A stretch of DNA of 53,976 nucleotides from a virus (Duplodnaviria > Caudoviricetes): positions 1-53,976 of the IMG/VR virus record IMGVR_UViG_3300030329_005429; one strand, written 5' to 3'. The position numbers were made by a program, and so were the translations under genes. The notes under the pieces were generated by a model. That model searched no databases and had not been told where the DNA came from. It worked only from the letters and a program-made list of their open reading frames with translations. Every line of letters begins with the position of its first letter. Position 1 is the stretch's first letter. Below, one piece after another: positions 3,382 through 21,882 of this stretch.

Positions 3382-5457
3382 TTACTTTTTAGGACTGCTC
3401 TTTTTAGAGGTTGAGTCCTTTTTGCTTTCTTGTATCTCTTTAGAAATACTACCAATGGCATCATTTAACCTTTTTTCAAAGACAGTGCCTGAGGCCTGTG
3501 CTTTGTTTTTTACTTGGTCTAAATTAGCCTTAAATTTCTCAACTTCAACCTTCTTACGCAAATTGACAGATTCTCTGTCCCTCGTTTGAAGGTCTCCCCT
3601 GAGCTTTTTCAATTCTTCTTGTTGTTGCTTTATCTGATTTTCCATTTTAGATATAATATCCGTTCTCTGCATAACACCTTCCATATCGAAAACCTCTGTT
3701 TTCTTTAGAACTTCTTGTCTATCTATAATTCCATTCTTATAAGCATCTGTATATAATTCTAATTGAGCATATCTATTTGAAGGTAATGTAGAACCAGTAA
3801 CAACTGTTATGTCATACTTACCAACAGAGATATCATTGAATACTTTTATCTCTCCAGTTTTTTCATCATACAATCTTTTATTTATAACATATTCACTCAT
3901 TGAATTATTAGGATTCGTAATCCTCATAACCTTTTCGGTTTTATACAATTGCTGCATTAAAGGAATAGCTACCATAGCCATCCTCTCTAAACCAGCTTCA
4001 ATATCTGCTTGTTTGGATTTGATTTTTCTTTGTCCAAATTCATCTATAGCAATAGTGGCTTTATATGTCTGAGGAGCTGCTCCAGAATTACCCATCATTA
4101 ATTCATATAACCCAAGTTGATGGTCTATATCAGCCTTAGCATCTGCTTCATTCTTATATAATTCGTTAGGAAGAGGTGTGGGTTGAACTGTTACAGGTTG
4201 TCCTTCTGAAAAGTCTATAGCAATTCCAACACCTGGCTGCGCCCATTTCTCTTCAAATTCTTTCATATCAACAGAACCCTCAGGAATAAGAACCTTTGCA
4301 TTCGTTGATGTTGTAGCATGTGCAATTACTAGTGACCTTATTTTATTTATATATTCTTGCAGCCCTTTAACCAATCTAACATCACTCATAGGATAAGGAG
4401 TTCTTGTATGTAAGTTCATAAATGGAATTATAGGGTAATGCTCTACAGGCAATTCTCTTGAATATAAATATTTATCACCCATAATAACGCATTGTATTAC
4501 CCTAGGAATCCTTACTTGGACAACCTCTATTAATTGTTTTTGAAGTAACTCTCCCATATTTGACTCTTGAACCATCATACCTCTAGAAGTCATTTTCTGA
4601 ACTATTTCTTCTTCGAGGACTGGTTTATCATTCATCATCCAAACAGGTCTATTCATATAAGATTCAAACTGTTTGTCACTAAATATATACTCTTTACCAG
4701 AAAACTTTTCGAATACTCTAAACTTATCTACAATCTCTTTGTAATATCTTTCATATCCTCTTATATAATCAGTAGATTCCCTGGTTTCGATTTCTTCTGG
4801 GAAAGCTGTTTCGCCATCATCTGCTCTATCAGTAGTAGGTCTGTCAGATAATTGTGAAGATGATGCATTTTGAATGGCTTTTTCGTACATTGGATGCATT
4901 TTCTTAGCTTGTTCTCTCGTAAAGAGTCTAGATATTATAATATTCTCAGCATCATCAAACATTCTATTTCTAGAATTTGGGTCGATATATACATCTAGTG
5001 GGTCTATATCCTTTATACAAACCTCACCCTTACCATCGTCCATTATAGGACTTTGATAGACTAATCCATACCCAACTCCACATACATAATAATCATCTAC
5101 TATTTGTCTCAAAACAGTAGTTCCTTCAGAAATATGCCATATATATTCAAGCATACCATTAAATACTTGAGCCACTTTATTATCAGAGTCTTCTCTAGGA
5201 GACACTCTAAAGCCAGGTTTATTTGCAGTCAACAAGGCTTTTGCTGTTTCAACAGCAGGATGCACTCTATTAACAACAATTGGAGCTTGTCCCCTAGATT
5301 CCAATGTATTTCTTTGTTCAGTCGTCCATTGCTTGCCTAATCTAAATTCTTGGTCTTCTTGGGCGTGTTCAGCCCAGACTCTTCTCTTTTCGGAATATTC
5401 GTCAAAAAGTCGGTGGGTTTCGTCTACTTTTTTCTTGTTATTATTATACTTCGCCAT
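3382..5457 (-). CDS. Portal protein (P22-like podoviral)
   Basis: 691 aa after TerL; GKQW..EQ, RGQAPIVVNRVHP, VYIDPNSR, YPIIPF, C-terminal coiled-coil barrel. Confidence 0.92.
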   Translation of the reverse strand: MAKYNNNKKKVDETHRLFDEYSEKRRVWAEHAQEDQEFRLGKQWTTEQRNTLESRGQAPIVVNRVHPAVETAKALLTANKPGFRVSPREDSDNKVAQVFNGMLEYIWHISEGTTVLRQIVDDYYVCGVGYGLVYQSPIMDDGKGEVCIKDIDPLDVYIDPNSRNRMFDDAENIIISRLFTREQAKKMHPMYEKAIQNASSSQLSDRPTTDRADDGETAFPEEIETRESTDYIRGYERYYKEIVDKFRVFEKFSGKEYIFSDKQFESYMNRPVWMMNDKPVLEEEIVQKMTSRGMMVQESNMGELLQKQLIEVVQVRIPRVIQCVIMGDKYLYSRELPVEHYPIIPFMNLHTRTPYPMSDVRLVKGLQEYINKIRSLVIAHATTSTNAKVLIPEGSVDMKEFEEKWAQPGVGIAIDFSEGQPVTVQPTPLPNELYKNEADAKADIDHQLGLYELMMGNSGAAPQTYKATIAIDEFGQRKIKSKQADIEAGLERMAMVAIPLMQQLYKTEKVMRITNPNNSMSEYVINKRLYDEKTGEIKVFNDISVGKYDITVVTGSTLPSNRYAQLELYTDAYKNGIIDRQEVLKKTEVFDMEGVMQRTDIISKMENQIKQQQEELKKLRGDLQTRDRESVNLRKKVEVEKFKANLDQVKNKAQASGTVFEKRLNDAIGSISKEIQESKKDSTSKKSSPKK

Positions 5458-8806: not shown

Positions 8807-9079
8807 TCAAGTCTTTTTTGAAGAAATAATATATGAAGCATTACTTTCCTCGCTTGTAAAGCTCGTCATTCTCTTATTACCAGGATATTCTTTAAAGATA
8901 CCACCCTCCTCAACTACTATAATACGCATCCCATCAGAATCTTCTGTAATAGGGTACTTTTTACCCATTAAAACTAGGCTTTTATTGTCGTATATAGCCT
9001 TATGACCCATTTTCAATACTTCGGATAATTTTCCAAATTTAGAAATTTTCAATTCTGTCATAATAGGCCCCCCTTTCAT
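8807..9079 (-). CDS. Hypothetical protein, first gene of the late arm (start may be ATG 9061); paralog of 10141-10413
   Basis: Open frame; GKKYPITEDSDGMRII resembles GAMFPVELDSDGLKII in 10141-10413. Confidence 0.7.
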   Translation of the reverse strand: MKGGPIMTELKISKFGKLSEVLKMGHKAIYDNKSLVLMGKKYPITEDSDGMRIIVVEEGGIFKEYPGNKRMTSFTSEESNASYIISSKKT

Positions 9080-9285
9080 ACCATAATTTACGAAGAATTA
9101 GGTTGAAAAACCCGATTTTAAAAAATTGCTGTAGAATCTGAGTGGTAGATATGCTACACACCTACCGCCTTGAAATTCAGGTCTATGGGTACAGGTTTCT
9201 GCTGAATTTTGCGGCTGTAGATGTGCATGCCCCCTCTGATTACAGTAGTAAATAAATTAATTAACTAATAAATAAAGGAAATAAT
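9080..9285. promoter_or_regulatory. Divergent intergenic control region with three stem-loops (candidate promoters, origin or genome end)
   Basis: Switch point between strands; stems GTGGTAG/CTACCGC, GAAATTCAG/CTGAATTTT, GCTGTAG/TTACAGT; GCTGTAGA occurs twice. Confidence 0.5.
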
Positions 9286-9543
9286 ATGAAGAAATTATAT
9301 AGATTTATTGTAGAAACATTTGGAGTCGCACCTTACGGTGGAATAGGTCCAAATGGTGGAAAGTGGGTCAAAATAGAGACCGCTTTCAATGATAAGGCAC
9401 AACAACTCATTAACAAGTGTAATGAGATAGCGGGAATATCCGCTAAGTTTATGCCACAAACTCCTCAGTATCCTTCGGGAGTTATGATTAATGTTGCATC
9501 TACGATGTCTGAAGACGATTTCGTTTCTCACTTGAGCTCGTAA
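9286..9543 (+). CDS. Hypothetical protein, first early gene
   Basis: AAGGA SD, ATG, 85 aa. Confidence 0.8.
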   Translation: MKKLYRFIVETFGVAPYGGIGPNGGKWVKIETAFNDKAQQLINKCNEIAGISAKFMPQTPQYPSGVMINVASTMSEDDFVSHLSS

Positions 9544-9554
9544 GAAATAGCAAC

Positions 9555-9582
9555 TAAAGGACTATCTATGGATAGTTCTTTA
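9555..9582 (+). promoter_or_regulatory. 12-bp hairpin after the first early gene
   Basis: TAAAGGACTATC-TATG-GATAGTTCTTTA. Confidence 0.55.
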
Positions 9583-9653
9583 TAACACATTTAATGAGGT
9601 GGCTATAATCTTGTAGTCACCTCTTTCTTTAAAAATAACACATTAAATGAGGT
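9582..9653 (+). repeat. 19-nt direct repeat ATAACACATT(T/A)AATGAGGT x2
   Basis: Copies at 9582-9600 and 9635-9653, one mismatch. Confidence 0.8.
9596..9630 (+). terminator. Intrinsic terminator-like hairpin
   Basis: GAGGTGGCTATA-ATCT-TGTAGTCACCTC followed by TTTCTTT; G-U pairs favour the + strand. Confidence 0.65.
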
Positions 9654-9657
9654 ATCT

Positions 9658-9816
9658 ATGGACACACCTAGGAATAAGTATGAACTAGTTAAATGGGCTA
9701 AAAGTATTAATCTAAAAGATGCCAGTATAATGAGTAAAAGTCAACTGTATTGGTATTGGTATAACATAAAGTTGATTAAGAATGATGGAACTATAATAAC
9801 TAAAAAGGAGAATTAA
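9658..9816 (+). CDS. Small hypothetical protein (52 aa, not in ORF track)
   Basis: GAGGT SD; MDTPRNKYELVKWAKSINLKDASIMSKSQLYWYWYN...; stop abuts next ATG. Confidence 0.7.
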   Translation: MDTPRNKYELVKWAKSINLKDASIMSKSQLYWYWYNIKLIKNDGTIITKKEN

Positions 9817-10011
9817 ATGCCATTCACTAAAGTTGAACCAATTTATTTAAGTAAGTGTTGTAATAAGCCAAGAGATACTTGTTATGACCCAAAAGATAAT
9901 GTTTGCTCTCATTGCTTAAATAAAGCTAATTTTGAAAAGGTTAATAAAGAATATGCTAAGAAAGTTCGTGAAATAGAGTATTGTGAATGGTTACTTAATA
10001 ATAAGATATGA
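9817..10011 (+). CDS. Small Cys-rich (zinc-binding) protein
   Basis: AAGGAG SD; SKCC and CSHC. Confidence 0.75.
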   Translation: MPFTKVEPIYLSKCCNKPRDTCYDPKDNVCSHCLNKANFEKVNKEYAKKVREIEYCEWLLNNKI

Positions 10012-10169
10012 AGATATTATGTTTAAATAATGATTGTGGTTTATGGATGAGACCTCAGGATATAGTTTGGTTAAAGCATCCATTTGTATGTAGTTCTTGT
10101 AATAAACCAATTAATATAGTACATAACTATGAGGAGGAAGATGTCAAAGAGCAAGAAAAAAGAAAGTAG
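10008..10169 (+). CDS. Small zinc-ribbon protein (53 aa, not in ORF track)
   Basis: ATGA overlap with upstream stop; CLNNDC ... CSSC. Confidence 0.65.
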   Translation: MKILCLNNDCGLWMRPQDIVWLKHPFVCSSCNKPINIVHNYEEEDVKEQEKRK

Positions 10170-10413
10170 TATAGATTATAATATGTTAGCACACAATACG
10201 TTGCATCATCATGTAGATAAGAAATATATAGATATAAATGGAGCTATGTTTCCAGTAGAATTAGATTCAGATGGATTAAAGATAATACATATACCAGGCA
10301 TTGGTGTATGGAAGAAAGTTTTAGATGATAAAGATAACCAGATAACTCATTGCTTGAAATTGGGTGAAAGGCAAAGGATTATCATAAACGGAGAATACAA
10401 AGATGCCAAATAA
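10141..10413 (+). CDS. Hypothetical protein, paralog of 8807-9079
   Basis: GAGGAGG SD before ATG 10141; shared G-x2-(F/Y)P-x3-DSDG-x2-II motif. Confidence 0.75.
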   Translation: MSKSKKKESSIDYNMLAHNTLHHHVDKKYIDINGAMFPVELDSDGLKIIHIPGIGVWKKVLDDKDNQITHCLKLGERQRIIINGEYKDAK

Positions 10414-10606
10414 AAGTGCAAAAGCAAGAAAGCAAAAGAAAGTTGCTTTAACAAGTGATATAGCCAAGAAGAAGAAACTTGCTCGTAAAGCTAATCAAAA
10501 GCTACGAAAGAGTCTTGAAAAGAAGGGTTATACTAATATAAAAATAGTAAATGGTAAAGCAATTCGCTATCAAAATGAAAAGGGGGAAGTAATTGAAGAT
10601 AAATAG
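10403..10606 (+). CDS. Small basic hypothetical protein
   Basis: GGAG SD; MPNKSAKARKQKK Lys-rich N-terminus. Confidence 0.75.
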   Translation: MPNKSAKARKQKKVALTSDIAKKKKLARKANQKLRKSLEKKGYTNIKIVNGKAIRYQNEKGEVIEDK

Positions 10607-10940
10607 CCTCCGAATTATAATAGCTTGTGTTACATTAGTATTATTGTCAAGCGTAATAGTTGCTTATAATACATATGATTATGAAACAGCAGCTTATCTT
10701 TCTATTATTATATTTATTAATCTATTGCTATTAGTAGGAATGGGTCAATTAAATTCAAATAAGGATGATTTTTCATTCGTAGTAATAATAGAACAAAAGT
10801 GGGAGAAAAGCTCTCCTTATGTAGCTTATTCTTATAAATCACGCAGTGCAGCAGAGAAAAGAGCTAAGGAAGAGAGAGCCATGTCGGTTAATACCAAAGC
10901 AGAGGTTATGATGTATGAATCTAGAGTTATGGATTGGTAA
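10593..10940 (+). CDS. Membrane protein with two predicted TM helices
   Basis: Two hydrophobic segments, IIIACVTLVLLSSVIVAY and YLSIIIFINLLLLVGM. Confidence 0.7.
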   Translation: MKINSLRIIIACVTLVLLSSVIVAYNTYDYETAAYLSIIIFINLLLLVGMGQLNSNKDDFSFVVIIEQKWEKSSPYVAYSYKSRSAAEKRAKEERAMSVNTKAEVMMYESRVMDW

Positions 10941-10947
10941 TAACTAT

Positions 10948-11011
10948 TCTTGTGGAGTAAAGGGCTTGAGTTGTAATGTGCTTGAGCCCTTTAAGAAGAA
11001 GATACACAAGA
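10948..11011 (+). promoter_or_regulatory. Intergenic extended hairpin
   Basis: TAAAGGGCTTGAG/CTTGAGCCCTTTA stem (10958-10993) enclosed by TCTTGTG/CACAAGA; tandem AAGATACAC repeats at its 3' end. Confidence 0.55.
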
Positions 11012-11042
11012 TACACCAGGATACTATATTAGAGAGGTATAA

Positions 11043-11237
11043 ATGAAAAGGCCAGTAGTTAAAAAAATAAGGAAATATGTCCCAGATGTTAAAATGATAA
11101 TAACAAAAGATTTGCAAATATGTGCTCTTGTAGGTAAAAAAGAAATACCTTGGGATGAGTATCAAATAAGAAAGAATATGGGTAGAAACGAACCTTGTTA
11201 TTGTAATAGTAATAAGAAATATAAAAAGTGTTGTTAG
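11043..11237 (+). CDS. Small protein with C-terminal SEC-C zinc-binding motif
   Basis: GRNEPCYCNSNKKYKKCC matches the SEC-C consensus GRNxPCxCGSGKKYKxC. Confidence 0.8.
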   Translation: MKRPVVKKIRKYVPDVKMIITKDLQICALVGKKEIPWDEYQIRKNMGRNEPCYCNSNKKYKKCC

Positions 11238-11257
11238 TTAAAATATTAAGGAGTATA

Positions 11258-11638
11258 ATGAAATTATTTACTATAATAGTAGAAAGAATAGATTCAAGTT
11301 TTGAACCAAAAAAAGATATAATAATGGGTGATAGAGATGTTATGTATTTCGGAACATTTACAAGCTATAAAAAGGCATTAAAAGGTTTTAGACAGGTATA
11401 TAGGCATGTTTTGAAGTATCATGAAATAAGTCCTTTAAAAGTAACAAAGAAATTTAAAGATTTATTTGAACAAGATACATTATGTTGGAATAAAATAACA
11501 CCTAAATTTTACACTTCTAAGGCAGCTTTATCAGGAGATTGGGATAGAAAAGATGTGAATGAGTATTATTTTAGATTTACAATTAATAAATTAGACCATT
11601 ATATAGATGATAATGGACAATTGAAAATAGTCAAATAA
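11258..11638 (+). CDS. Hypothetical protein
   Basis: AAGGAG SD before ATG 11258 (track start 11228 is probably too early). Confidence 0.7.
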   Translation: MKLFTIIVERIDSSFEPKKDIIMGDRDVMYFGTFTSYKKALKGFRQVYRHVLKYHEISPLKVTKKFKDLFEQDTLCWNKITPKFYTSKAALSGDWDRKDVNEYYFRFTINKLDHYIDDNGQLKIVK

Positions 11639-11642
11639 TAAA

Positions 11643-11900
11643 ATGAGATATAAAGACAAAGACGGATATCAATATAATTTTAAATGCAGATATGTTAACA
11701 ATTCTAATACTTGTAGTTATTGCGAACCAGCCTATGAAGTTCCAATGACTTTAGAGTTAAGAAAGTTATTAACAGCTTTAGATGGTAGAGGTTCATTATA
11801 TGAAAAGCCTTATATTAACCTAGACAAAGGAGAGCTGTCATATGATGAATTTGAAAGAATAAAAGATATTACTGAAATAAAAACAAAAAAAGGAGAATAA
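11643..11900 (+). CDS. Hypothetical protein with CxxC
   Basis: Open frame in operon; CSYC. Confidence 0.7.
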   Translation: MRYKDKDGYQYNFKCRYVNNSNTCSYCEPAYEVPMTLELRKLLTALDGRGSLYEKPYINLDKGELSYDEFERIKDITEIKTKKGE

Positions 11901-11916
11901 AAGGAGGTAATAATAA

Positions 11917-12213
11917 ATGACATCAATGGATGAAATGATGCAAAAAATAAGTATAGGAACACAAGTATTTTGTGATTTTTGTAATGGCGGAGCAGATACC
12001 AAGGGAGGAGTTATGCTTGGAAGCTACGCTGTATGTGGTAATTGTTGCGAAAGAAATGGTTATTACGACACAAAAAGCGATGAAATAGATGAAGTATTTG
12101 ATAAAAATAAAACATTCAAAGTAAATGTTCTTGATAGAAGAAAAAGAACAACTGGTAGTAGCGAAGGAATTATAACTATTACTAAATTTCCTAATATAAC
12201 AGAAGAATCATAA
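11917..12213 (+). CDS. Zinc-finger protein (CxxC...CxxC, ClpX-C4-like spacing)
   Basis: AAGGAGG SD; CDFC ... VCGNC. Confidence 0.75.
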   Translation: MTSMDEMMQKISIGTQVFCDFCNGGADTKGGVMLGSYAVCGNCCERNGYYDTKSDEIDEVFDKNKTFKVNVLDRRKRTTGSSEGIITITKFPNITEES

Positions 12214-12216
12214 GTT

Positions 12217-12280
12217 TTTTGGATTAAGAGGCTTAAGATGTTATGTTCTGACAAAACAGAGGTTAATTAGGAATCTAAAA
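12217..12280 (+). ncRNA. Hairpin element A (weak member of the array)
   Basis: TTTTGGATT/AATCTAAAA closing stem followed by AAGA; inner TCTG/CAGA hairpin; lacks the 3' UGA. Confidence 0.3.
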
Positions 12281-12365
12281 GCACTCAGTAGCCAAGTTGT
12301 TGTATAAATAGATATCGGAGTGTCTATAAGTACAATTGTGCAACAAAGCCGAGACCTGAGTGCTT
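12279..12365 (+). ncRNA. Hairpin element B
   Basis: AAGCACTCAG/CTGAGTGCTT 10-bp perfect stem; inner TTGTTGTA/TGCAACAA and ATAGATAT-CGGA-GTGTCTAT stems with G-U pairs on +. Confidence 0.6.
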
Positions 12366-12371
12366 ATTATT

Positions 12372-12445
12372 TATGAGAGCCAATAAGCCAAGTGATGCTA
12401 TTCTTGTGGAAGGGTTATAGTAGAGACATCGGTGAGGCTCTCATA
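12372..12445 (+). ncRNA. Hairpin element C (AAUA/UGA internal loop)
   Basis: TATGAGAGCC-AATA...TGA-GGCTCTCATA, 10-bp stem. Confidence 0.7.
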
Positions 12446-12467
12446 TATTTAAAAGATTTTATAAATT

Positions 12468-12567
12468 AAAAGAGAGCCAATAACTGGTCCTGTAAGTCCC
12501 TTTTTAGTAGTACCTCTCAAAAACTACTCCTTTTTTTAGGGCAAAGGAATATGTGAGGCTCTCTTTT
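12468..12567 (+). ncRNA. Hairpin element D (AAUA/UGA internal loop)
   Basis: AAAAGAGAGCC-AATA...TGA-GGCTCTCTTTT, 11-bp stem; inner TCCT/AGGA, GTCC/GGGC, AGTAGT/ACTACT. Confidence 0.7.
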
Positions 12568-12575
12568 TATGATTT

Positions 12576-12693
12576 AAAAGCTAAGTAAAGAGCTGTAACC
12601 GTGAGGCCAGCCAGGGAGAAGTTAATGCGTTCAACAACTATAGTTTTTCTTGCTAGACTATAGTATCCTTTCCCGACTTGATACTTAGCTTTT
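12576..12693 (+). ncRNA. Hairpin element E (AAGA/UGA internal loop, multibranch)
   Basis: AAAAGCTAAGTA-AAGA...TGA-TACTTAGCTTTT, 12-bp stem; inner GNRA hairpin CC-GTGA-GG and ACTATAGTTT/AGACTATAGT. Confidence 0.7.
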
Positions 12694-12699
12694 TATTTA

Positions 12700-12769
12700 T
12701 TGGGAATCAATAATGTTATAATTATGTCCTCGCCACGGTGCCTGGGGCAGATGCGCATGAGATTCCCAA
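12700..12769 (+). ncRNA. Hairpin element F (AAUA/UGA internal loop)
   Basis: TTGGGAATC-AATA...TGA-GATTCCCAA, 9-bp stem; inner TGTCCT/GGGGCA. Confidence 0.7.
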
Positions 12770-12795
12770 ATAATTAAGTGAAAAAGGAGAAGTAA

Positions 12796-13218
12796 ATGCA
12801 AGTAAACCCACAAGTAGTAGACGAGACTAACCATGGTAAATTGTATGATGATAAGTTATGGAAGGTCTTACAAATAAAAAAATACATAAAACCCACTTTA
12901 TCTAGTCAAGATTGCCCTAAAAGGTATAAAATATATTATCTTGCAAAGAAAAAAGTATTAAGGATATTCGGTGAATCTATATCTCTAAAAGGATTAGTAA
13001 GGATACCGAGTTATGTTATGTATGTAAATACAGATAGCTATAAAAATGGAGAAGTAGTGAAGAAGACACAGATAGACCATATTAGTGAGTTTGTATTTAA
13101 AACCAGCTATTTTATGGCTAAAAGGGCAAAGGTATATCGTAAATCAGTTTGCGGTGTATGCCCAAAAATAGAATGTTCTTTCAATAGTAAATACAAAGGA
13201 GAAGTAAATGGCAAATAA
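12796..13218 (+). CDS. Basic hypothetical protein with C-terminal CxxCxxxxC
   Basis: AAGGAG SD; CGVCPKIEC; overlaps the Ubl start. Confidence 0.75.
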   Translation: MQVNPQVVDETNHGKLYDDKLWKVLQIKKYIKPTLSSQDCPKRYKIYYLAKKKVLRIFGESISLKGLVRIPSYVMYVNTDSYKNGEVVKKTQIDHISEFVFKTSYFMAKRAKVYRKSVCGVCPKIECSFNSKYKGEVNGK

Positions 13219-13441
13219 TAATAAAGCAAGCGTATTCTTAAATGATTATGACCACGGTCATAAGCCAAGAAAAGTAGAATATGAAACTTTAGGTGATTTA
13301 GCATCAGGTGAGAATCTTACAACTGATAAAAAAGAAGTAACCATAATGATTAATGGTGCACCTGAAGATGATTTAGGAAAAGCTTTAAGAGATAATGATA
13401 CTGTAACATTTTCTAGAGTTCATCACAAATCAGGAAAATAG
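13208..13441 (+). CDS. Ubiquitin-like (ThiS/MoaD beta-grasp) protein ending SG-K
   Basis: 77 aa; TLGDL, IMING, LRDNDTVTF pattern of beta-grasp proteins; penultimate Gly; upstream of E2/JAB/E1. Confidence 0.8.
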   Translation: MANNNKASVFLNDYDHGHKPRKVEYETLGDLASGENLTTDKKEVTIMINGAPEDDLGKALRDNDTVTFSRVHHKSGK

Positions 13442-13456
13442 TTAGTATTTAAAAAT

Positions 13457-13525
13457 TAGAAGGGGTCAAGATAAGTTCAAATCGAAGATGGCAGTGTCTT
13501 TAATTTTGCTTTGAGACTCCTTCTA
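13457..13525 (+). ncRNA. Hairpin element G (AAGA/UGA internal loop) between the Ubl and E2 genes
   Basis: TAGAAGGGGTC-AAGA...TGA-GACTCCTTCTA, 11-bp stem with one G-U. Confidence 0.65.
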
Positions 13526-13540
13526 TTATTTGGAGAAAAT

Positions 13541-14785
13541 ATGACAAGAAAAGTAGAGAAGTTAGTAAACCTTGTAGAAAGCAATGTTAATCATTCTAAT
13601 CTATATCCAACAAGAGTTATTGCAAAATGGGAAGAAATAAAGGAATTATTCATATTACAAGCTGAATTAGTAGAAAAGAACTTCGAATTACTTGTTACTG
13701 CAAGAAAAAATCCTGAATTTAAAGTGATTTTAAGAGATATTCAAGTGAATACTGATGAAGGTGTTGTTAATATGGGTAATTATATATTGCATTTTAAATT
13801 AAATGTATGGGCTATGAAATGGAGTATTAGCTTTAATCAAGCAATAACTACTGTTTATGGAAGAAAGAAAATAATCCATGGATATCATCCTCATTTAAGT
13901 GGTGGAAGACCTTGTTTAGGAGATTTTAGAGATGAATATAATAATATGCTGGAAAATTTTACAATAATGGACGCAGTTTCTAAATGTAAATCTTTTCTAG
14001 AATGTTATAATAGATTAAATCCTTACCATGATATAGCATATTATATTAAAATAGAAGCAGAAATACCAGGTACTGATGATATAATGGTATGGGAGGGACT
14101 TACTAAAGCCTATACAATGTTTAGAGTAAATGACATTTATGTACCAGGAATGGATAGTTTGGTATTAGGGTCGAGAGATTGGGGAAAATTCAGTAAAATA
14201 ATAGCATCTATAATAGAAAGATATCAATGTAGCCAGCAAAGAGCTGTTGCTATATTTATAAGACACGCAAGATGCTTCTTTTATTTTATAAATAGAAAAT
14301 TAAGCGAATTTTCAGGAATGATTCCAAATTCTGAACTAAATAAATGTGGCTGGTTCTTAGCACATAATGGAAGATACTATCATATAAGAGATTATCCTAT
14401 ATATCTTGATTCAGAAACAACTAGAAAATTAAGAGCATATGATAGAGTTAGATATTTAGATACTTATATGGAAAGATTACATGAAATATTGGACTTAGAA
14501 ATGTCATTTGTTGATGATTTGACAAAATGGGAACATAGAAGTCTAGGATTGTATTCTGAAACATTTAATGGTATATCTATATATCAGGAATTAGGTGATA
14601 GAATAATAAATGAAGGATTTGAAAATCAGAAAGGTGTCCATGAGACATTAGTAGAAGCAGGATATTACATAAGAAGAAAATATCTTGAATATTTAAACTT
14701 AGAAAAACAAAGGATAGAAAATGAAATTATCAATTTCAATGAAGATGGAAAACAAAATAACTTATTTGCTCAACCATTATCTTAA
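13541..14785 (+). CDS. Prokaryotic E2-like (UBC-fold) conjugating protein with long C-terminal extension
   Basis: HPHLSGGRPCLGDF matches the HPH-x-C catalytic signature, followed by FLECYN; GGAG SD before ATG 13541. Confidence 0.75.
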   Translation: MTRKVEKLVNLVESNVNHSNLYPTRVIAKWEEIKELFILQAELVEKNFELLVTARKNPEFKVILRDIQVNTDEGVVNMGNYILHFKLNVWAMKWSISFNQAITTVYGRKKIIHGYHPHLSGGRPCLGDFRDEYNNMLENFTIMDAVSKCKSFLECYNRLNPYHDIAYYIKIEAEIPGTDDIMVWEGLTKAYTMFRVNDIYVPGMDSLVLGSRDWGKFSKIIASIIERYQCSQQRAVAIFIRHARCFFYFINRKLSEFSGMIPNSELNKCGWFLAHNGRYYHIRDYPIYLDSETTRKLRAYDRVRYLDTYMERLHEILDLEMSFVDDLTKWEHRSLGLYSETFNGISIYQELGDRIINEGFENQKGVHETLVEAGYYIRRKYLEYLNLEKQRIENEIINFNEDGKQNNLFAQPLS

Positions 14786-15524
14786 TATTGAATGGAGTGG
14801 TCCATGTTGGTATTCATACAAAAAGGATGAAGATGGATTTCCAACAGAGTTCAAATTAGAACATTTTGTATTATTAGATAAAGGAACAGCATCAGCAACT
14901 GATTGGTCAGGAGAACAGTTCGGTAAAATCTTTCCAATTATCATGAAGAAATACCCAAAACTAAAAAAATGTGTTGTAGGAAATATACATTCACACCATA
15001 CTATGGGAGCATTCTTTAGTGGAACAGATATAGAGCATCTGGAAGAAAATGCAAATAAAGACTTTTATCCAAGCCTTGTAGTAGCAAGGTCAGGAAAAGC
15101 ATTAAAAGCATTTGCATTTAGCTATAAAGACCAATACAATAACATTCATAGATATGAAGTTGATGAAGATGATATAGCAGTAAAGATTCCTAAACCAGAA
15201 AAAGAATGGTTAAGAGAAATAAAAGAAGCAGAAAAAGTATCAAAACCTGAAGCAATAACATTAGCTAGTAATAATAGAGGGTATTATAATGCTTTTAATC
15301 GAAACCACAATCAATCCTATTTATTCAATTATCATCAAAATGGATGGGGAGAAAAGGTATTAGATGAAACAGACCCAAAAACTTGGACGGATGAAGAGAA
15401 GATAGAAGCCTGGCAAGAAGTAATGGATGATATAGAAATGGGGTTTCAAGATACAATAGAAGCTAAAAAAAGGCTAAAGGAAATAGGTGTTAGCTGGGAA
15501 GGAGTAATAGTTGGAAATAAATAG
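14721..15524 (+). CDS. JAB/JAMM metalloisopeptidase
   Basis: N-terminal EWSG glutamate and HSHHTMGAFFSGTD (HxH-x7-S-x2-D). Confidence 0.92.
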   Translation: MKLSISMKMENKITYLLNHYLNIEWSGPCWYSYKKDEDGFPTEFKLEHFVLLDKGTASATDWSGEQFGKIFPIIMKKYPKLKKCVVGNIHSHHTMGAFFSGTDIEHLEENANKDFYPSLVVARSGKALKAFAFSYKDQYNNIHRYEVDEDDIAVKIPKPEKEWLREIKEAEKVSKPEAITLASNNRGYYNAFNRNHNQSYLFNYHQNGWGEKVLDETDPKTWTDEEKIEAWQEVMDDIEMGFQDTIEAKKRLKEIGVSWEGVIVGNK

Positions 15525-16191
15525 TTCTAGGTTTTTAAGAAATAAAGATTTAATAGACCAAAAGAACTTAAAAGGAAAAGTAACTTTAATAGGAGCAGGC
15601 GGAATTGGGTCTGCTCTTATTCAGTTATTAGCAATAATGGGATGGAAAGATGTAATGGTATGGGATGATGATGTATTAGCTCCTCATAACTTATCAACTA
15701 CAACTTATCAACCTAAATACCTTGGAAAAGATAAATCTTTAGTAGCAATGGAAACATTCAATTCATTTTCAGATAAATCTCAAAAAATAAATCATAAACC
15801 ATTTAGATGGTATTCAGATAGTAAGATAAGCCCTAGAGTATTCTTAGGCCCTGACAATATGGATACCAGGAAAGAGGTTTATGAGAAATGGGCTTCATTA
15901 AGCAATAGGGAATTTCTTATAGATATGAGAATGGGTGCATTAGGAATGGAAATAATAACAGCAACAAAAGAAAGCGATAATTATATGGATACTTGGATGG
16001 ATGGTAATTCCATAAAAGACGAAGCTTGTACTATGAAACATACTATATTCACAGCTAATATAGTAGCTGGTTTTGGTATAAATCAGGCATTTTGCGTATT
16101 GCAAGGAATACCATATTATTCGTATATTAACATCAGTTTAACTCCCCTTATCTGTAGGAAAGAGGGGTTTACTGTCTCTAGAACATTATAA
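15511..16191 (+). CDS. ThiF/MoeB/E1-family adenylating enzyme
   Basis: RFLRN, GAGGIGS, DDDVLAPHNL, GPDNMDTR, IDMRMG, candidate catalytic Cys in DEACT. Confidence 0.92.
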   Translation: MEINSSRFLRNKDLIDQKNLKGKVTLIGAGGIGSALIQLLAIMGWKDVMVWDDDVLAPHNLSTTTYQPKYLGKDKSLVAMETFNSFSDKSQKINHKPFRWYSDSKISPRVFLGPDNMDTRKEVYEKWASLSNREFLIDMRMGALGMEIITATKESDNYMDTWMDGNSIKDEACTMKHTIFTANIVAGFGINQAFCVLQGIPYYSYINISLTPLICRKEGFTVSRTL

Positions 16192-16203
16192 AATAGGAGA
16201 AAT

Positions 16204-17070
16204 ATGGACATTCAAATAAGAAAAGTAAAGAATGATTGGAAAGAGATGCCTAATGGTATTACCTATTATTTTATTGGTCAACCTAAGACTGGTAAAACAA
16301 CCGCAGCTTCTAAATGGAGTAGCAAAGGTAGTGAAGGCGTTCTTCTAATTGATACTGATTTAGGTAGTGATTTTGTTGAAAATGCAAACACTATAACTGT
16401 ATCATCATTAAATGAACCTATAAGAGAAAAAATGAGTGAAGATGGTAGAAAAATAGTAAATAAAAAAGGTCAACGGGAGGTAGAAATAGTTCCTCCAGAA
16501 GAAAGAGGATTTTATTATCGTTCAGGTGATAATAAAGGAAAGCCTATGCCTGTTTATTCTATGAGTGAAGTATTGCAATGGATTAAATCCAATTGGAATA
16601 AAGTTCCTTATGATACTATAGTAATAGATACAATTGACCAGGTAAATAGATGGATTGAAGAAAAAGTTACAAGAGAACTTAATATAAGAGCAATGGGTGA
16701 AGGACAATGGGGTGCTGACTGGGGTATGGCAAGAAGAAATAATGTCGATATCATAGTTAGATTCCAAAAACTAATGAAGCAGCTTGGGGGGAATTTAGTG
16801 TTGATAAGTCATAGTAAAACTACTACTATAACAGATGGAAAAGCACAATTGTCCCCTGAATTACCAAGAGGATTAGCATATAGCATAACAGCTAAAGCGG
16901 ATGTAATTGGATATTCTACAGTAGATAAAGAATCAGGAGATTATAAAATATCATTTGAATCTTATGATGAAAGAACTGTAGGAAGTCGATTAAAGCCTTT
17001 AGCTCAAAAAAGCTTGCTATTCGATTATAAAACAATATTAAATGAAATCTTAACTTATAAGGAGAAGTAA
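16204..17070 (+). CDS. AAA_24/Sak4-like ATPase (phage recombination)
   Basis: Walker A GQPKTGKT, Walker B TIVIDT, LISH, ADVIGY. Confidence 0.85.
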   Translation: MDIQIRKVKNDWKEMPNGITYYFIGQPKTGKTTAASKWSSKGSEGVLLIDTDLGSDFVENANTITVSSLNEPIREKMSEDGRKIVNKKGQREVEIVPPEERGFYYRSGDNKGKPMPVYSMSEVLQWIKSNWNKVPYDTIVIDTIDQVNRWIEEKVTRELNIRAMGEGQWGADWGMARRNNVDIIVRFQKLMKQLGGNLVLISHSKTTTITDGKAQLSPELPRGLAYSITAKADVIGYSTVDKESGDYKISFESYDERTVGSRLKPLAQKSLLFDYKTILNEILTYKEK

Positions 17071-17073
17071 AAT

Positions 17074-17691
17074 ATGTCAGGTATAGTTAGACCACAAAAA
17101 TCTGGTTCAGGAGGAGGAAGTTTTCTAGGATTTAAAGAGCTTGGAATAGTAAGCTTTGAAGATAAATCAAATAACTTCGATTGGGCAGATGTATATCTTA
17201 AAGTAGAAATGAAAGTAGAGGGAAGTCAGTATACAAGAAATTTATTTGTATCTGGCTCGCATGAAAAAGATGATAGTGGAAATATAATTGACAGTTCTTT
17301 ACTTAAAAGAATATATTACTTATTTGATGCAATTGGATTTCAAGGTGGATTAAACCTGAAAGGTCAATTTGTAGATGAAAAAGAAAATATAATCCCAGAT
17401 ATAGCAGGTTATCTAAATGATAACTTCGCTCCTAATCCTATAGAAGACCCATCAATGAGTCTTGTAGGCTATCTGTATAAAGAAGCTCCAAGAAAGAATG
17501 GAGATGGAAAAGTGTATAGTCGTATACATAACTTTCTTCAACCTAATACAGCAAAAGGCTTAGAGGTATTGAAAGATAGAATCCAGTTCCTAAAATCAAA
17601 GAACTTTATAAAAGAAGCTGATGAAACAACAATAAATGGAGTTCTACCAAAGAATGTAGAGATAGAAGGTGCTATAACAGAGCAGCTATAA
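17074..17691 (+). CDS. Putative single-stranded DNA-binding protein
   Basis: Between the Sak4-like ATPase and primase-helicase; beta-rich N-terminus; call is positional. Confidence 0.5.
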   Translation: MSGIVRPQKSGSGGGSFLGFKELGIVSFEDKSNNFDWADVYLKVEMKVEGSQYTRNLFVSGSHEKDDSGNIIDSSLLKRIYYLFDAIGFQGGLNLKGQFVDEKENIIPDIAGYLNDNFAPNPIEDPSMSLVGYLYKEAPRKNGDGKVYSRIHNFLQPNTAKGLEVLKDRIQFLKSKNFIKEADETTINGVLPKNVEIEGAITEQL

Positions 17692-19494
17692 ATGGAAAGG
17701 TTAATAGAAGTAGCGTATGGGCATCCCTCATCAAGAGGGGTGCTTGTACCAATAACTCAATTGCAATCCTATTTAAAACAAGCAATGGATGAGAATAAAT
17801 CTTTATATAGAAGTGTTTATCTATATGATGAAAATGTCTTAGAGCATATGCAGAAAGTAGGTAGTGTTAGAAAATATATGGGCCAAAGATATATTGACAA
17901 TGTTATAGTTGATATAGATAAAAAGGATAATTCAAATAATCAAACATTAAAAAATGCTAGAAATATCTTTTATAAAATAGTCAAAGCTGGCGCTCCATAT
18001 GATGCTATACTCCCTTTATTTAGTGGCTCTGGATATCATCTTTTATTATCAGGAAAGTTGTTTAGTTTTAAAGACTCTAAAGACCTACCTTATGTAGTGA
18101 AAAGTACAATGAACTCTTTATTAGGTAAAGATGTAGACCCTTCAGTTTATACAAGGACAGCTATATATAGAGTGTCACATACAATAAATAATAAAACTGG
18201 GTTATATAAAATACCTTTAAAGCATGAAGAGTTCTTAAATTCTGATGCCGATAGAATATTAGAGTTAGCAAAGACACCAAGAATAGAATTTAAATCAAAG
18301 AAATTAACATCAAAAGGCCAACTATTAACATTCGTTACAAAGAATGAAGATATCCCAAGTCTTAAATCATTTACAAATATAAGAGAACCTAAAAATATAG
18401 TTCCTTGTGTACAAACCCTTTACAATAAAGGACCAGAAGAAGGCAATAGAAATATGACAGCTATGCGTATAGCAAGCCATTTTAAAAGAAATGGAATACC
18501 GTCAGAAGCAACAAAAGCCGCTCTTATGCATTGGAATAAAGATTCATTAGAAAATGATTTCCTGATGGAAAGAGTGGAATCTGTATATAATAATGGTTAT
18601 AGATATGGATGTAATGATTCAATTTTAAAAGATAATTGCAATACAAGATGCATACATTTTAAAAGGAGGGACTATTTGGTGGATGTTAAAAACTCAAATC
18701 AATTACAAGAAGAGCTGCATAAACGAATGACAACTGATTTTACAGGAAGAGTAATAAAGCTGAGTAAATTATTAGGACTTCCTGATAAAGAAATAACAAT
18801 ATATCCAGGTGAATTAGTCACAATATTTGGACCAACAGGATGTAATAAAACAACCTTTGCCCAAAATCTTATATTAGGATATGATATGTTAAATGATAAA
18901 ATAATAGACGATAAAGTTCCAACTTTATTTTTATCTCTTGAATTATCAGATTGGTATATGCATAGAAGAAACCTGCAAATAGTAGCAAATAGAACAAAGC
19001 AACAAATAGATAGTAATTATGAGAAAATCTATAATGATAATAAGGATAAACTTGAACATGTAATGATTCAAACTGTATCTCCTACAATAGAACAAATTAA
19101 GGAGAAAATACGGGAATTAAATCCACTTTGTGTTGTTATTGATTATATAGACTTATTAGGCACTCCTGTCGGATATAAGGGCGAATATGAACAAATTAGA
19201 TACATATCGCATTCATTAAGTAATATGGCAGTGAACCTTGATATAATAATCATACAAATATCACAAGTATCAAGAGATTATTCAAGAAATGAAGTTTTAG
19301 ACCTTTATGCAGGAAAAGGCTCTGGAGCTATAGAAAATGCCTCAAGAAAAGTTATAGGCATTAATGGTAAGGCAAATTCAAATCAGAAAACAGTAGAAAT
19401 GTTTAAAAATAGTGATGGGGATTTGTTTAATGATGTTAAACTAGAATGGCTTCCGTCATTCAGATTAAGGAGGGTTAGTGAAAGTAACGATTGA
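17692..19494 (+). CDS. AEP primase/polymerase - PriCT - DnaB-like helicase fusion
   Basis: AEP motifs VDID, SGSGYH, RVSHTIN; PriCT EGNRN; helicase GPTGCNKT, LSLE, VIDYIDL, ISQVSR, GSGAIE. Confidence 0.88.
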   Translation: MERLIEVAYGHPSSRGVLVPITQLQSYLKQAMDENKSLYRSVYLYDENVLEHMQKVGSVRKYMGQRYIDNVIVDIDKKDNSNNQTLKNARNIFYKIVKAGAPYDAILPLFSGSGYHLLLSGKLFSFKDSKDLPYVVKSTMNSLLGKDVDPSVYTRTAIYRVSHTINNKTGLYKIPLKHEEFLNSDADRILELAKTPRIEFKSKKLTSKGQLLTFVTKNEDIPSLKSFTNIREPKNIVPCVQTLYNKGPEEGNRNMTAMRIASHFKRNGIPSEATKAALMHWNKDSLENDFLMERVESVYNNGYRYGCNDSILKDNCNTRCIHFKRRDYLVDVKNSNQLQEELHKRMTTDFTGRVIKLSKLLGLPDKEITIYPGELVTIFGPTGCNKTTFAQNLILGYDMLNDKIIDDKVPTLFLSLELSDWYMHRRNLQIVANRTKQQIDSNYEKIYNDNKDKLEHVMIQTVSPTIEQIKEKIRELNPLCVVIDYIDLLGTPVGYKGEYEQIRYISHSLSNMAVNLDIIIIQISQVSRDYSRNEVLDLYAGKGSGAIENASRKVIGINGKANSNQKTVEMFKNSDGDLFNDVKLEWLPSFRLRRVSESND

Positions 19495-19714
19495 TTTGCC
19501 AGATGAAGACTACCTATTATTGAAAACAAGAGCAGCAAAAGAAATGCGTTCAATAAGAGCTCAGGTAGCTTATGATATAAGAGAAGCTGTAAATAAAGAT
19601 ATTTCAGATAGGAAAGAATGGCGAAAAATGAATAATGAAGCAGCTAAATTTGCTAAAAAGACTCTTTTGGATACAATGACACAAGAATCTGTCGGTCCTA
19701 TGGAGAAATTATGA
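19478..19714 (+). CDS. Ribbon-helix-helix (Arc-like) DNA-binding protein
   Basis: VTIDLPDEDYLLLKTRAAKEMRSIRAQV matches the RHH pattern. Confidence 0.7.
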   Translation: MKVTIDLPDEDYLLLKTRAAKEMRSIRAQVAYDIREAVNKDISDRKEWRKMNNEAAKFAKKTLLDTMTQESVGPMEKL

Positions 19715-20244
19715 GCACAACAAAGGAACTAGTAGGCGAATACATCGATATAGAAATAAGAAAGGAGTACGCAGAAAGTCTTCAAGAAAGAAACGAATGC
19801 GATAATGCTCTCCAGGTAATACAAACAAAGCTAAAGAAGAAGGTTAAAGGTATAGACCATATAGTTATGGAAATGGATAAGAAATTAGCACTTGTAGTTG
19901 CTGAAGAAGATATTATATCCAAAGAAATAGCCAGATTAAAGAGAAGAAAAAATGCTATAAAAAGAAGTAAAGGATATTTCAATGAGGTTCTTTTACCAAT
20001 AGTAATAAAAGAAGTAGGTCAAAATGGAGTATTCGAAACTGAAACAGCAAAATATAAGTTATATGAAACATATGGAAAAGTAGATGTTAATGAAATAGAA
20101 TGTCCTAAAGACTATCTAAAAATCAGGATGGTTGAAGATATAGATAGAAAGAAAGCCAGAGCTGATGCCATAACAGCTCATAAAGAAGGCAAAGAGATAC
20201 CTGGTGTTAAAATAGCACTAGTAGAAAGAGTTAGAAGAACTTGA
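19711..20244 (+). CDS. Siphovirus Gp157-like protein
   Basis: Coiled coil EIARLKRRK, then CPKDY...IDRKK...GKEIPGV. Confidence 0.75.
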   Translation: MSTTKELVGEYIDIEIRKEYAESLQERNECDNALQVIQTKLKKKVKGIDHIVMEMDKKLALVVAEEDIISKEIARLKRRKNAIKRSKGYFNEVLLPIVIKEVGQNGVFETETAKYKLYETYGKVDVNEIECPKDYLKIRMVEDIDRKKARADAITAHKEGKEIPGVKIALVERVRRT

Positions 20245-20435
20245 TAAAAACATATAATAAAGATGGATGTAGTTATATATGTTTATTCAATTCATTAATA
20301 ATAGGATGTGCAAGGCAAGTAGATATTAATATTGGTAAAACAATACTTATTAATGTCTCATTATGGCAATTAGGCTTTAGCATATCATTTCATAAGTACG
20401 AAGAAAACGGAGGTAAAGTGTATGGCGAATCGTAG
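20241..20435 (+). CDS. Hypothetical protein
   Basis: TTGA-coupled ORF, 64 aa. Confidence 0.55.
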   Translation: MIKTYNKDGCSYICLFNSLIIGCARQVDINIGKTILINVSLWQLGFSISFHKYEENGGKVYGES

Positions 20436-20637
20436 AAAATCTCAGCTAAAAAAGATACTAAATCATTTGCAAAAAGTAGGATATATAAATCCACTTCAAG
20501 CATTGAATAAGTATGGATGCTTTAGATTATCTGCTGTAATATACTCATTAAGAGAAGCAGGGCATAATATTATTACCAAAAATATGAAAAATAAGCATGG
20601 TAATAATTATGCAAGATATGAGTATGATGCAAGTTAA
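20422..20637 (+). CDS. Winged helix-turn-helix protein
   Basis: ILNHL...INPLQALNKYGCFRLSAVIYSLREAGHNI is a typical phage HTH. Confidence 0.85.
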   Translation: MANRRKSQLKKILNHLQKVGYINPLQALNKYGCFRLSAVIYSLREAGHNIITKNMKNKHGNNYARYEYDAS

Positions 20638-20669
20638 CCTTGCTTTGAATGCGTATTAAATCGTAAAAT

Positions 20670-20746
20670 ATAAATGGAGAGACTGCTAGTTTATTTACTA
20701 TTGTTCATTAATAATACCTTTATATAGAGCAGTCTCTTCTATTTAT
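20670..20746 (+). promoter_or_regulatory. 18-bp hairpin occluding the HNH start codon
   Basis: ATAAATGGAGAGACTGCT pairs with AGCAGTCTCTTCTATTTAT (one bulge, one G-U); the 3' arm includes the AT of ATG 20745. Confidence 0.6.
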
Positions 20747-21203
20747 GAGACAAAAAAGAATACTACATTGGGAAAAGAAATTTCAAAGAAAATTAAAAAG
20801 ATTTCATAAAAACTTTTGGAAAAGAGCTTTTGGAAAAATCATCAAAAAAAGCTCTAACCTTAGAACATCATTAAAGAGGAGAAGTCGTGAGTATAATACG
20901 CTTTTTAAAATCAGCCTTGAGGAAATCCGTGAAATTATATATAAATACTACGGTAAAGGCTGTAATTATTGTGGGTGCACTCTTACCGTGGCTAATATTG
21001 TTTGCGACCATATACAGCCTATATCTAATGGCGGAGACAGCACTCCAAGTAATCTTCAAATAATATGTAGAAGATGTAATATCAGGAAAGGTAATTTATC
21101 CCATAAAGACTTTAAAAGAGTATTGAAGTGGATAAATAAACAACCAGAAGATGTAAAAAAGTATATTTTAAGAAAACTATCGAAAGGAGATAACTTCAGA
21201 TAA
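20745..21203 (+). CDS. HNH endonuclease
   Basis: CNYCG, DHIQPISNGG, NLQIICRRCNIRKG. Confidence 0.92.
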   Translation: MRQKRILHWEKKFQRKLKRFHKNFWKRAFGKIIKKSSNLRTSLKRRSREYNTLFKISLEEIREIIYKYYGKGCNYCGCTLTVANIVCDHIQPISNGGDSTPSNLQIICRRCNIRKGNLSHKDFKRVLKWINKQPEDVKKYILRKLSKGDNFR

Positions 21204-21316
21204 TGAGTGATTTAGATAAATTCAAAAAAATAGTTGAAAAACTAATAGGACCTCTGGGATTAACAACTTCAAAGAAAGTTAAAAAGAAAAGAGGAAGACC
21301 AAGGAAGAAAAAATGA
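21203..21316 (+). CDS. 37-aa AT-hook peptide (not in ORF track)
   Basis: TAATG coupling and AAGGAG upstream; MSDLDKFKKIVEKLIGPLGLTTSKKVKKKRGRPRKKK; ATGA-coupled to next gene. Confidence 0.7.
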   Translation: MSDLDKFKKIVEKLIGPLGLTTSKKVKKKRGRPRKKK

Positions 21317-21531
21317 ATTATTTTAAAAATACTAATTACTTTAACAATTCAACAAAAAAGAAAAGCTATAAAAGAGAACTTATATACACTCCAGAATATA
21401 GCACTTTCACAACACATCAAAGACATAACGCTTGTGCAGAGAAAGCATCAGGAAAAGGTACAGATGGTTATTGTTGGTGGATAGAAAAATGGTTGAAAAT
21501 GTATCCGACAGAGAATGCATTTAAGGTATAA
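21313..21531 (+). CDS. Hypothetical protein
   Basis: ATGA-coupled ORF, 72 aa. Confidence 0.65.
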   Translation: MNYFKNTNYFNNSTKKKSYKRELIYTPEYSTFTTHQRHNACAEKASGKGTDGYCWWIEKWLKMYPTENAFKV

Positions 21532-21815: not shown

Positions 21816-21882
21816 CTGCCAATAAAGACAGCAAAGAACAACAGCTAAAAAATATTAAAAATATTTATACAGGGAGGCAAAA

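Follow-up and report, generated by a model that had tools for sequence, protein, structure and literature searches.

Predicted RNA modules with an invariant base and an exchanged apex in an uncultured marine phage and its relatives

Background

In phage T7, intergenic hairpins with an internal loop, about ten per genome, are the sites of RNase III. A different layout is found in Y RNAs and YrlA, where a conserved closing stem binds Ro60 or Rsr and the variable part is an effector module, which is tRNA-like in YrlA. Kink-turns follow a sequence rule of their own: a helix, a bulge of 3 nt and then tandem sheared G-A and A-G pairs. Here we describe an array of predicted RNA hairpins at positions 12214–12795 of a phage genome, the IMG/VR virus record IMGVR_UViG_3300030329_005429 (Caudoviricetes), which is complete and comprises 53,976 bp with a G+C content of about 32%. 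This whole record is called the window in this text. One hairpin unit of the array, unit D, defines a family (D-type) in which an invariant base carries an exchanged apex.

The ornate phage RNAs GOLLD and ROOL are described as occurring in RNA islands near tRNAs (10.1101/2024.12.08.627333), and 8,495 unnamed structured-RNA candidates have been reported from IMG/VR by Fremin, Bhatt and Kyrpides in 2023 (PMC10690425). D-type or E-type units (the latter a second family defined below) may be among these candidates: the main text, in the part available to us, holds no description of the motif, and the supplementary tables, which lay outside our comparison, might list it. The other literature searched held no description of the motif either, and a full-text search with the two arm sequences of the D-type unit returned two unrelated primer matches and nothing else.

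Results and discussion

The D-type base is invariant and folds on one strand

The exact 19-nt 5′ arm of unit D is present in 116 IMG/VR viral contigs. In 113 of the 121 matches the 3′ arm, an 18-mer that was not used in the search, lies at most 400 nt away (96 distinct sequences). All 96 carry the 3′ arm unaltered, together with the same helices, loops and junction, which makes up an invariant base of about 45 nt. Its outermost helix, P1, consists of GAGAGCC/GGCUCUC (7 bp) with a covarying A-U extension. It is followed by an internal loop AAUA/GA (4x2), helix P1b (AC/GU, 2 bp), a second loop UGG/AUAU (3x4), helix P2 (UCCU/AGGA, 4 bp) and a junction GUAAG ... AA, which is topped by a variable hairpin, P4. 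The minimum free energy (MFE) fold of unit D matches this consensus fold. Since these ~45 nt are unchanged where the flanks have diverged by 10–20%, the base is under strong purifying selection.

The outer stems covary, as a sequence-only reading of the window had claimed for the closing stems. Among 49 aligned D-type sequences, the pair that borders the core helix on its outer side is A-U in 29, U-A in 18, G-C in one and U-G in one, and is always paired. The second pair of the apical helix P4 is C-G in 42, G-C in four and U-A in two. The covariation score is 0.231, compared with 0.091 in 500 shuffles, none of which reaches it, and with at most 0.072 in a control with slid partners. Where the core helix varies, which is rare, the change is compensated or gives a wobble pair, as in GAGAGCU/AGUUCUC (L042) and GGGAGCC/GGCUCUC (L059); labels of this kind refer to our comparison set of 138 related loci.

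Among 93 distinct units, the three pairs beside the core stem include 20 G-U and a single A-C, and therefore the plus strand is the folding strand. The same preference had been seen in the closing stems of the window, where it is weak (0–1 G-U per stem); it is the D family that bears it out. Taken together with the co-orientation of the neighbouring genes described below, RNA is the economical reading.

The family is missing from Rfam 15 and from 50,697 GenBank phage records, where unit D gave just eight 20-nt chance matches, all of them in its variable part. Among 185,579 species genomes, there is one true D-type copy, on a phage-like contig of a Flavobacteriales metagenome-assembled genome, and one further chance 19-mer in a coding region. 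Host assignment is uncertain, as this contig is the sole genome match. The D-type is an unnamed family with a wide distribution in one marine phage clade.

The apex is exchanged as a cassette

The inserts carried by D-type bases range from 4 to about 150 nt, and the largest contain two or three hairpins. One copy (L090) is free of payload, with a loop of 4 nt and a whole unit of 43 nt, which shows that the base alone can be kept. Among 41 pairs of units whose 250-nt flanks are at least 80% identical on both sides, insert identity does not exceed 0.70 in 29; the other 12 have identical inserts and are for the most part duplicates. The apical hairpin is even swapped outright between loci with 94–99% identical flanks. 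L012, L120 and L068, aligned with a mean column identity of 94%, illustrate this: the difference is limited to P4, which lies between invariant arms, and the three P4 sequences are mutually unrelated.

A blast search with the inserts gave 68 matches outside exact D units. Inserts recur at 80–100% identity in other D-type units, at either of two scaffold positions, and also as free-standing stem-closed units (for example L025 3421–3575). The D-type apex is exchanged as a cassette, and the idea of a common handle with variable payloads, put forward in the sequence-only reading, fits the comparative data for unit D. The roles proposed there for the payloads, as guides or antisense RNAs, are without support, because the inserts show no excess complementarity to their surroundings: for 87 inserts compared with 1.5 kb of flank on each side, the longest complement averages 8.37 nt, and 8.30 nt in shuffled sequences.

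We also noticed a D-type insert with a tRNA T-arm-like stretch, GGGTTCGAATCCC, at L033 1675–1821. With its conserved stem and tRNA-like top, this unit recalls the layout of YrlA.

Anatomy of the array in the window

Positions 12214–12795 contain no plus-strand open reading frame (ORF) of at least 30 aa, and the minus-strand ORFs merely overlap the edges of the array (12063–12254, 12697–12834 and 12774–12896). On the plus strand, the 596-nt stretch folds with −159.9 kcal/mol (z −3.85), a value that none of 100 shuffles equals; the minus strand reaches −135.0 kcal/mol (z −2.80), equalled by one of 100. MFE and centroid structures alike split the stretch into successive stem-closed modules with short, A/U-rich linkers between them (Table 1).

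Table 1. Units of the array and neighbouring genes in the window
Feature	Position	Strand	Description
Unit A	12214–12277	+	small hairpin with 12-mer TTCTGACAMAAA; not significantly folded
Unit B	12279–12365	+	10-bp closing stem AAGCACUCAG/CUGAGUGCUU; without AAUA/UGA loop
Unit C	12372–12445	+	10-bp stem; GAGAGCC-AAUAA ... UGA-GGCUCUC
Unit D	12468–12567	+	11-bp stem; full D-type family member
Unit E	12576–12693	+	12-bp stem; second family
Unit F	12700–12769	+	9-bp stem, AAUA/UGA loop, then 4-bp helix
Ubiquitin-like small protein, 77 aa	13208–13441	+	ubiquitin-like; relatives' versions end in GG
Unit G	13457–13525	+	solitary, 11-bp stem; between ubiquitin-like gene and 414-aa gene
414-aa protein	13541–14785	+	weak leads to prokaryotic E2 folds, Atlas scores < 0.9
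Prok-JAB protein	within 13208–16191		E 4e-7
ThiF/E1 protein	within 13208–16191		E 3e-15

The sequence-only reading had divided the ORF-free stretch into six folded units, A to F, and had added G further downstream. When each unit is folded singly and compared with 200 shuffles, the z-scores are −5.89 for B (−30.9 kcal/mol, equalled by 0 of 200), −2.99 for C, −2.52 for D, −3.10 for E, −2.02 for F and −2.98 for G. Unit A, with a z-score of −0.18 and 86 of 200 shuffles as good, finds no support as a folded unit. We then scanned the window for closing stems of at least 8 bp that are followed by AA[T/G]A and have TGA before the 3′ arm. This motif matches six times on the plus strand and four times on the minus strand; 50 shuffles average 1.24 matches per strand and never exceed 4. 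Units C to G, whose stems measure 9–12 bp, account for five of the plus-strand matches; the sixth (9054–9149), which has an 8-bp stem with three G-U pairs, looks like chance. As had been described, C and D share GAGAGCC/GGCUCUC, and the remaining closing stems differ in sequence and are still paired. Based on the fold z-scores and the motif scan, the described anatomy is real except for unit A. The earlier observation is confirmed in this sense, and its interpretation is partly supported.

A covariance model built from the 49 aligned D-type sequences (R1, with rough E-values) scores unit D at 88.2 bits (E 3e-19), partly by construction, as D is among the training sequences. Unit C reaches 29.9 bits (E 4.9e-5), unit F 21.2 bits (E 0.006) and unit G, weakly, 14.2 bits (E 0.33). 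In these three units R1 aligns just the closing helix and its loop; what they share with D is therefore the handle and not the interior. Unit C, whose interior is unrelated, is a handle-level paralog of D. A strict scan for the handle over 980,759 bases of loci found 84 distinct D-type matches and 33 other distinct matches (6–20 in shuffles), and about 12 of the 33 have clearly related handles with different stems.

Unit E represents a second family, the E-type. Its hallmark is an invariant 20-nt hairpin, GCUGUAWCCGUGAGGNCAGC with a GUGA loop, inside a variable closing stem. A helix with a G-rich and a C-rich strand and a conserved stretch, CCUUUC, are further parts of unit E. Besides the window, 12 viral contigs contain the pattern, and all 13 units have closing stems of 9–15 bp (six distinct stems). 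RNAalifold, run on a MAFFT alignment of 10 E-type units, recovered the invariant hairpin alone. It missed the closing stem because the 3′ ends were misaligned, and stems were therefore found sequence by sequence. The CCUUUC stretch is kept in the E-type units, often unpaired or looped (window 12668–12680; L074, L096, L134–L138), and presumably resembles the 3′ tail of 16S rRNA. Unit F has one homolog, L010:3902–3974, at the same genomic position. Both helices differ by changes on both sides, UU..AA versus AA..UU in the outer stem and AUGU/GCAU versus ACAU/AUGU in the inner helix.

Among the 138 loci, the 12-mer of unit A is present only in the closest relatives, L004/L030/L064 and L010/L108. 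The hairpin around it (12245–12260 in the window; L004 3912–3923; L010 3864–3875) has a loop CUGACA(A/C) and a T-rich stretch upstream. Lying where the array begins, this hairpin might serve as its promoter or as another kind of start signal.

Arrays in related loci

The composition of the arrays varies between relatives. In the window, the modules stand in the order A-B-C-D-E-F, and L010 has A-F, with D moved behind the ubiquitin-like gene. The slot after this gene is filled by unit G in the window and by D-type units in relatives; in L010 it holds three units, one of them D-type. The two stem-closed units on both sides of this D-type unit (L010 4650–4740 and 4828–4926) have another handle in common, namely closing stem, GAGGCGUGG ... 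GUGUA, closing stem. They are probably a third family.

In L025, an ORF-free array of 1.2 kb with a D-type unit adjoins a tRNA-Met gene (2628–2698), the only known RNA family found in a search of this array. A GOLLD RNA (RF02032, 192.7 bits) is located at 799–1219, 2 kb from the D-type array. At about 3640–3720, the array contains a tRNA-like sequence with a T-arm that is not called by ARAGORN or Rfam.

Comparison with known RNA classes

Like the sequence-only reading, which recognised no named family in the array, searches with Rfam 15 gave no match at gathering score in the whole window. At E-values up to 10, there are six weak, unrelated matches in 12000–13700, far below gathering scores. 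GOLLD (RF02032) and ROOL do not match in the window, and ARAGORN finds no tRNA or tmRNA gene in it, nor is there an RF00005 match.

The D-type resembles T7 RNase III sites, Y RNAs and GOLLD/ROOL/tRNA islands, and appears to be a member of none of them. Like T7 RNase III sites, D-type units are intergenic in polycistronic phage transcripts, are co-oriented with the genes, and have a conserved internal loop that separates the lower stem from an upper stem of variable sequence; a role in defining or protecting mRNA ends is plausible by analogy. In contrast to them, they occur once or twice per genome instead of about ten times, their ~45 nt are invariant including the helices, beyond what RNase III recognition needs, and their apex of variable size is exchanged as a cassette. 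The paired 5′ and 3′ ends, which form a conserved looped stem carrying a variable module, are shared with Y RNAs and YrlA. However, the units match no Rfam model, the phage has no TROVE protein, and D-type units are located inside operons rather than being separate genes. The likeness to GOLLD and ROOL is that of phage-borne, highly structured RNAs, and L025 has GOLLD, tRNA-Met and a D-type array within 3 kb. The units described here, however, measure 70–120 nt, are each self-closed and are shuffled independently instead of forming one large fold. Kink-turn or box C/D ribonucleoproteins have in common with the units an asymmetric internal loop with GA beside a helix; their sequence signature, however, is lacking in three of the units (C, D and F), and no L7Ae homolog is encoded by the phage, although a host protein might take that role.

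Other candidates were rejected. Integron attC sites have conserved core sites at both ends, and the gene cassettes that flank them are exchanged; here, the flanking genes stay and the interior of the hairpin is exchanged, although no search for an integrase was made. A riboswitch is contradicted by the lack of an expression platform and by the position of the units 3′ of genes. The units are not direct repeats, as those of type III toxin-antitoxin systems are. They also differ from miniature inverted-repeat transposable elements, as their outer flanks are complementary, not duplicated, and their copy number is 1–2. Known small ribozymes gave no Rfam match at E-values up to 10.

A possible RNA island of processed modules

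We tentatively favour the reading that the stretch is a phage RNA island of processed, handle-bearing modules. It would be a tandem array of autonomous stem-closed RNA modules, read on the plus strand within a polycistronic transcript of the early/replication arm in an uncultured marine phage of ~54 kb. A closing helix of 9–12 bp would insulate each module. In C, D, F and G, this helix is predicted to abut a small asymmetric internal loop with AA(U/G)A facing (U)GA, and in E a variant of that loop. The island character is supported by the 19 of 79 D-type units that lie in ORF-free gaps of at least 480 nt, by the array of L025 next to tRNA-Met and near a GOLLD RNA, and by the differing module content of the window and L010. 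The invariant D-type base may be where a conserved trans-acting factor docks or processes the RNA in a sequence-specific way; this factor could be an RNase, RNA polymerase, the ribosome or some other protein of host or phage. At the apex, phages would exchange well-folded hairpin modules that are unrelated to each other. RNase E and RNase Y prefer A/U-rich single strands next to hairpins. The A/U-rich single-stranded linkers of the array might be cut by a host endonuclease, and the closing helices would then protect the products, yielding discrete stable RNAs and/or protected mRNA ends.

The DNA runs that contain the phage are marine metagenomes; no RNA run is listed as containing the locus, and three metatranscriptome runs from a DNA-positive sample show nothing at 11900–13600, which is uninformative either way. 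Several points weigh against this reading. Solitary units in tight spacers fit a cis-acting element as well or better, and so does the payload-free L090. No candidate binding protein was found in the phage, which has no L7Ae domain (PF01248; control genomes match), no TROVE domain (PF05731) and no RNase III domain. The handle loop is not universal, being absent in B, in several E-type relatives and in the two L010 flanking units. For units B, C and G, blastn gave no homolog in related loci that total ~1 Mb, and their structures therefore derive from folding one sequence each. Finally, the invariance of the D-type 5′ arm is partly built in, as the search used the exact 19-mer.

Cis-acting elements and other readings

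It is possible, if on balance doubtful, that the units are purely cis-acting intercistronic elements which tune operon expression, that the inserts are tolerated passengers and that no functional small RNA is released. They might be 3′-end stabilisers, partial terminators or attenuators, T7 RNase III-like processing sites or polymerase-binding antiterminators like the HK022 put RNA, and they would tune expression between the gene for a bulk protein and a downstream enzyme gene. This reading draws on the gene context of the D-type units. The nearest ORF is co-directional with the unit in 89 of 99 cases upstream and in 80 of 92 downstream, and the spacers are tight, typically with 7–30 nt after the stop codon and 18–34 nt before the next start. 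The median ORF-free gap around a D-type unit is 244 nt, and most units are solitary. All five complete records carry one or two copies. In a survey of the neighbours of 97 distinct units, with 82 upstream ORFs, the units recurrently follow genes for bulk products: 24 of the 82 belong to one cluster that includes an SSB-like protein (phrog_378), and 13 encode small ubiquitin-like proteins, several of which end in GG. Enzymes are found downstream. A primase-helicase adjoins a D-type unit 13 times (eight downstream, five upstream), and proteins of 495–546 aa follow in 11 cases; the latter match no Pfam family and show no significant similarity to the 414-aa protein of the window (E 0.054). Together with the payload-free copy, these features favour a role in cis, and the invariant sequence would be accounted for if the units bound a conserved machine of the host.

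On the other side, D-type units are not intrinsic terminators as a class, because a U-rich tail (at least five T in the next 8 nt) is present in just 28 of 83 contexts; in 39 of the 83, the first position after the core stem is not a T. Individual copies might terminate, and U-runs follow units D and E of the window. The inserts do not behave as drifting junk either, since unrelated well-folded replacements recur at 90–100% identity elsewhere. Furthermore, five or six modules in a row between two genes exceed the need for one regulatory site.

Rather unlikely, in our estimate, is a more elaborate scheme in which the D-type is a natural RNA 'display scaffold'. Its base would be held by a conserved machine, and its hypervariable slot would carry a payload from a shared pool of folded modules. 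The payload would set specificity under diversifying selection in phage-host or phage-phage conflict, as a decoy or as an immunity or exclusion determinant. Co-infecting phages would swap payloads when they recombine through the short homology of the two invariant arms, and the array of the window would be a battery of such modules.

The variation between arrays also bears on the idea of selfish or recombination-driven passenger modules, which would spread between co-infecting phages via short homology at the invariant arms and bring the phage no benefit. The same unit type occurs in at least four different intergenic slots, modules are nested in modules, inserts are common to several contexts, and array content differs between close relatives; moreover, these phages encode a Sak4-like annealing protein and an SSB. 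We nevertheless regard this explanation as improbable. A hairpin of 30–150 nt encodes no mobility function, the copy number is low, and the unchanged base amid diverged flanks points to purifying selection.

The frequent proximity to SSB and primase-helicase genes could also indicate that, instead of an RNA, the element is a single-stranded DNA used in replication, either as a signal for priming or helicase loading or as a site of recombination. A folded DNA strand would likewise show strand specificity and hairpin covariation, and G-T wobble is tolerated in DNA hairpins. The orientation of the units, however, tracks transcription in ~90% of cases, and units also lie between genes unrelated to replication, for example after the ubiquitin-like gene. 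Arrays adjoin tRNA and GOLLD genes, whose products are RNAs, and the array of the window is far from the replication genes, which start at 16204. These observations make a DNA element distinctly improbable.

The sequence-only reading had interpreted the internal loop as kink-turn geometry. In the corresponding model, kink-turn handles would be bound by an L7Ae-type protein and would present guide, antisense or decoy payloads. GA does stand on the 3′ strand beside the closing helix in C–G, AAGA on the 5′ strand of E and G could give tandem G-A pairs, and the payloads are hypervariable. The standard rule is nevertheless violated: the 5′ strand AAUA-A of C, D and F would make the first sheared pair A-A instead of G-A, and AAGA leaves E and G just two bulged bases before GA. 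With no L7Ae domain in the phage, no excess complementarity of the inserts to their flanks, and payloads of 4 to ~150 nt that fold on themselves, unlike guides, this model is very improbable. Chance hairpins or ordinary Rho-independent terminators, which consist of a G+C-rich hairpin with a U-tract right behind it, are hardly credible, even with A/T-rich sequence that forms hairpins easily and with the U-runs after D and E, given fold z-scores and motif counts beyond those of shuffles, covariation and conservation across more than 100 contigs, U-rich tails in just 28 of 83 contexts, and a consensus scan with no terminator-like site in 12214–13600 of the window.

Genomic setting

The array belongs to a plus-strand arm of the genome, at roughly 9000–22000. 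The genes around it are small and without known function; the conjugation-like set and an AAA_24/Sak4-like protein are encoded further on. A blastn search with 12000–13600 gave no match among GenBank phages, nor did a tblastn search with the Sak4-like protein, and we found no close GenBank phage. The 414-aa protein as query for related loci retrieved no relative. The gene set within 13208–16191 resembles a ubiquitin-like conjugation system. Strong ribosome-binding sites of the AAGGAG type precede genes at 11900–11916, 12780–12795 and 13195–13207.

A scan of the window for sigma-70 promoters found 32 promoter-like sites compared with 27.1 in shuffles, which is no enrichment. A terminator consensus scan gave two sites, both outside the array, compared with 1.6 in shuffles. 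The one on the plus strand (9596–9623) is the sole terminator-like site of that strand. Strong hairpins are also present in other spacers of the plus-strand arm, at 9555–9650 (z −5.13), 10948–11015 (z −3.32) and 20669–20748 (z −3.22).

Conclusions

Phage non-coding RNAs are poorly charted, and the D-type, with more than 100 viral contigs, adds a family to them. What is unusual is its architecture: a base of ~45 nt is invariant even in its helices, and the apex is replaced between genomes that are otherwise 94–99% identical. The combination of an invariant base and a replaced apex suggests that the base has a specific, conserved partner to which it binds, and that the displayed part turns over fast. 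With a minimal core of just 43 nt, direct testing is feasible. Binding of the base to a host machine, or a function as processing signal, would explain how these phages set gene dosage and would also provide a compact natural RNA scaffold. If the payloads matter, phage conflicts would involve a variable RNA locus of a new kind.

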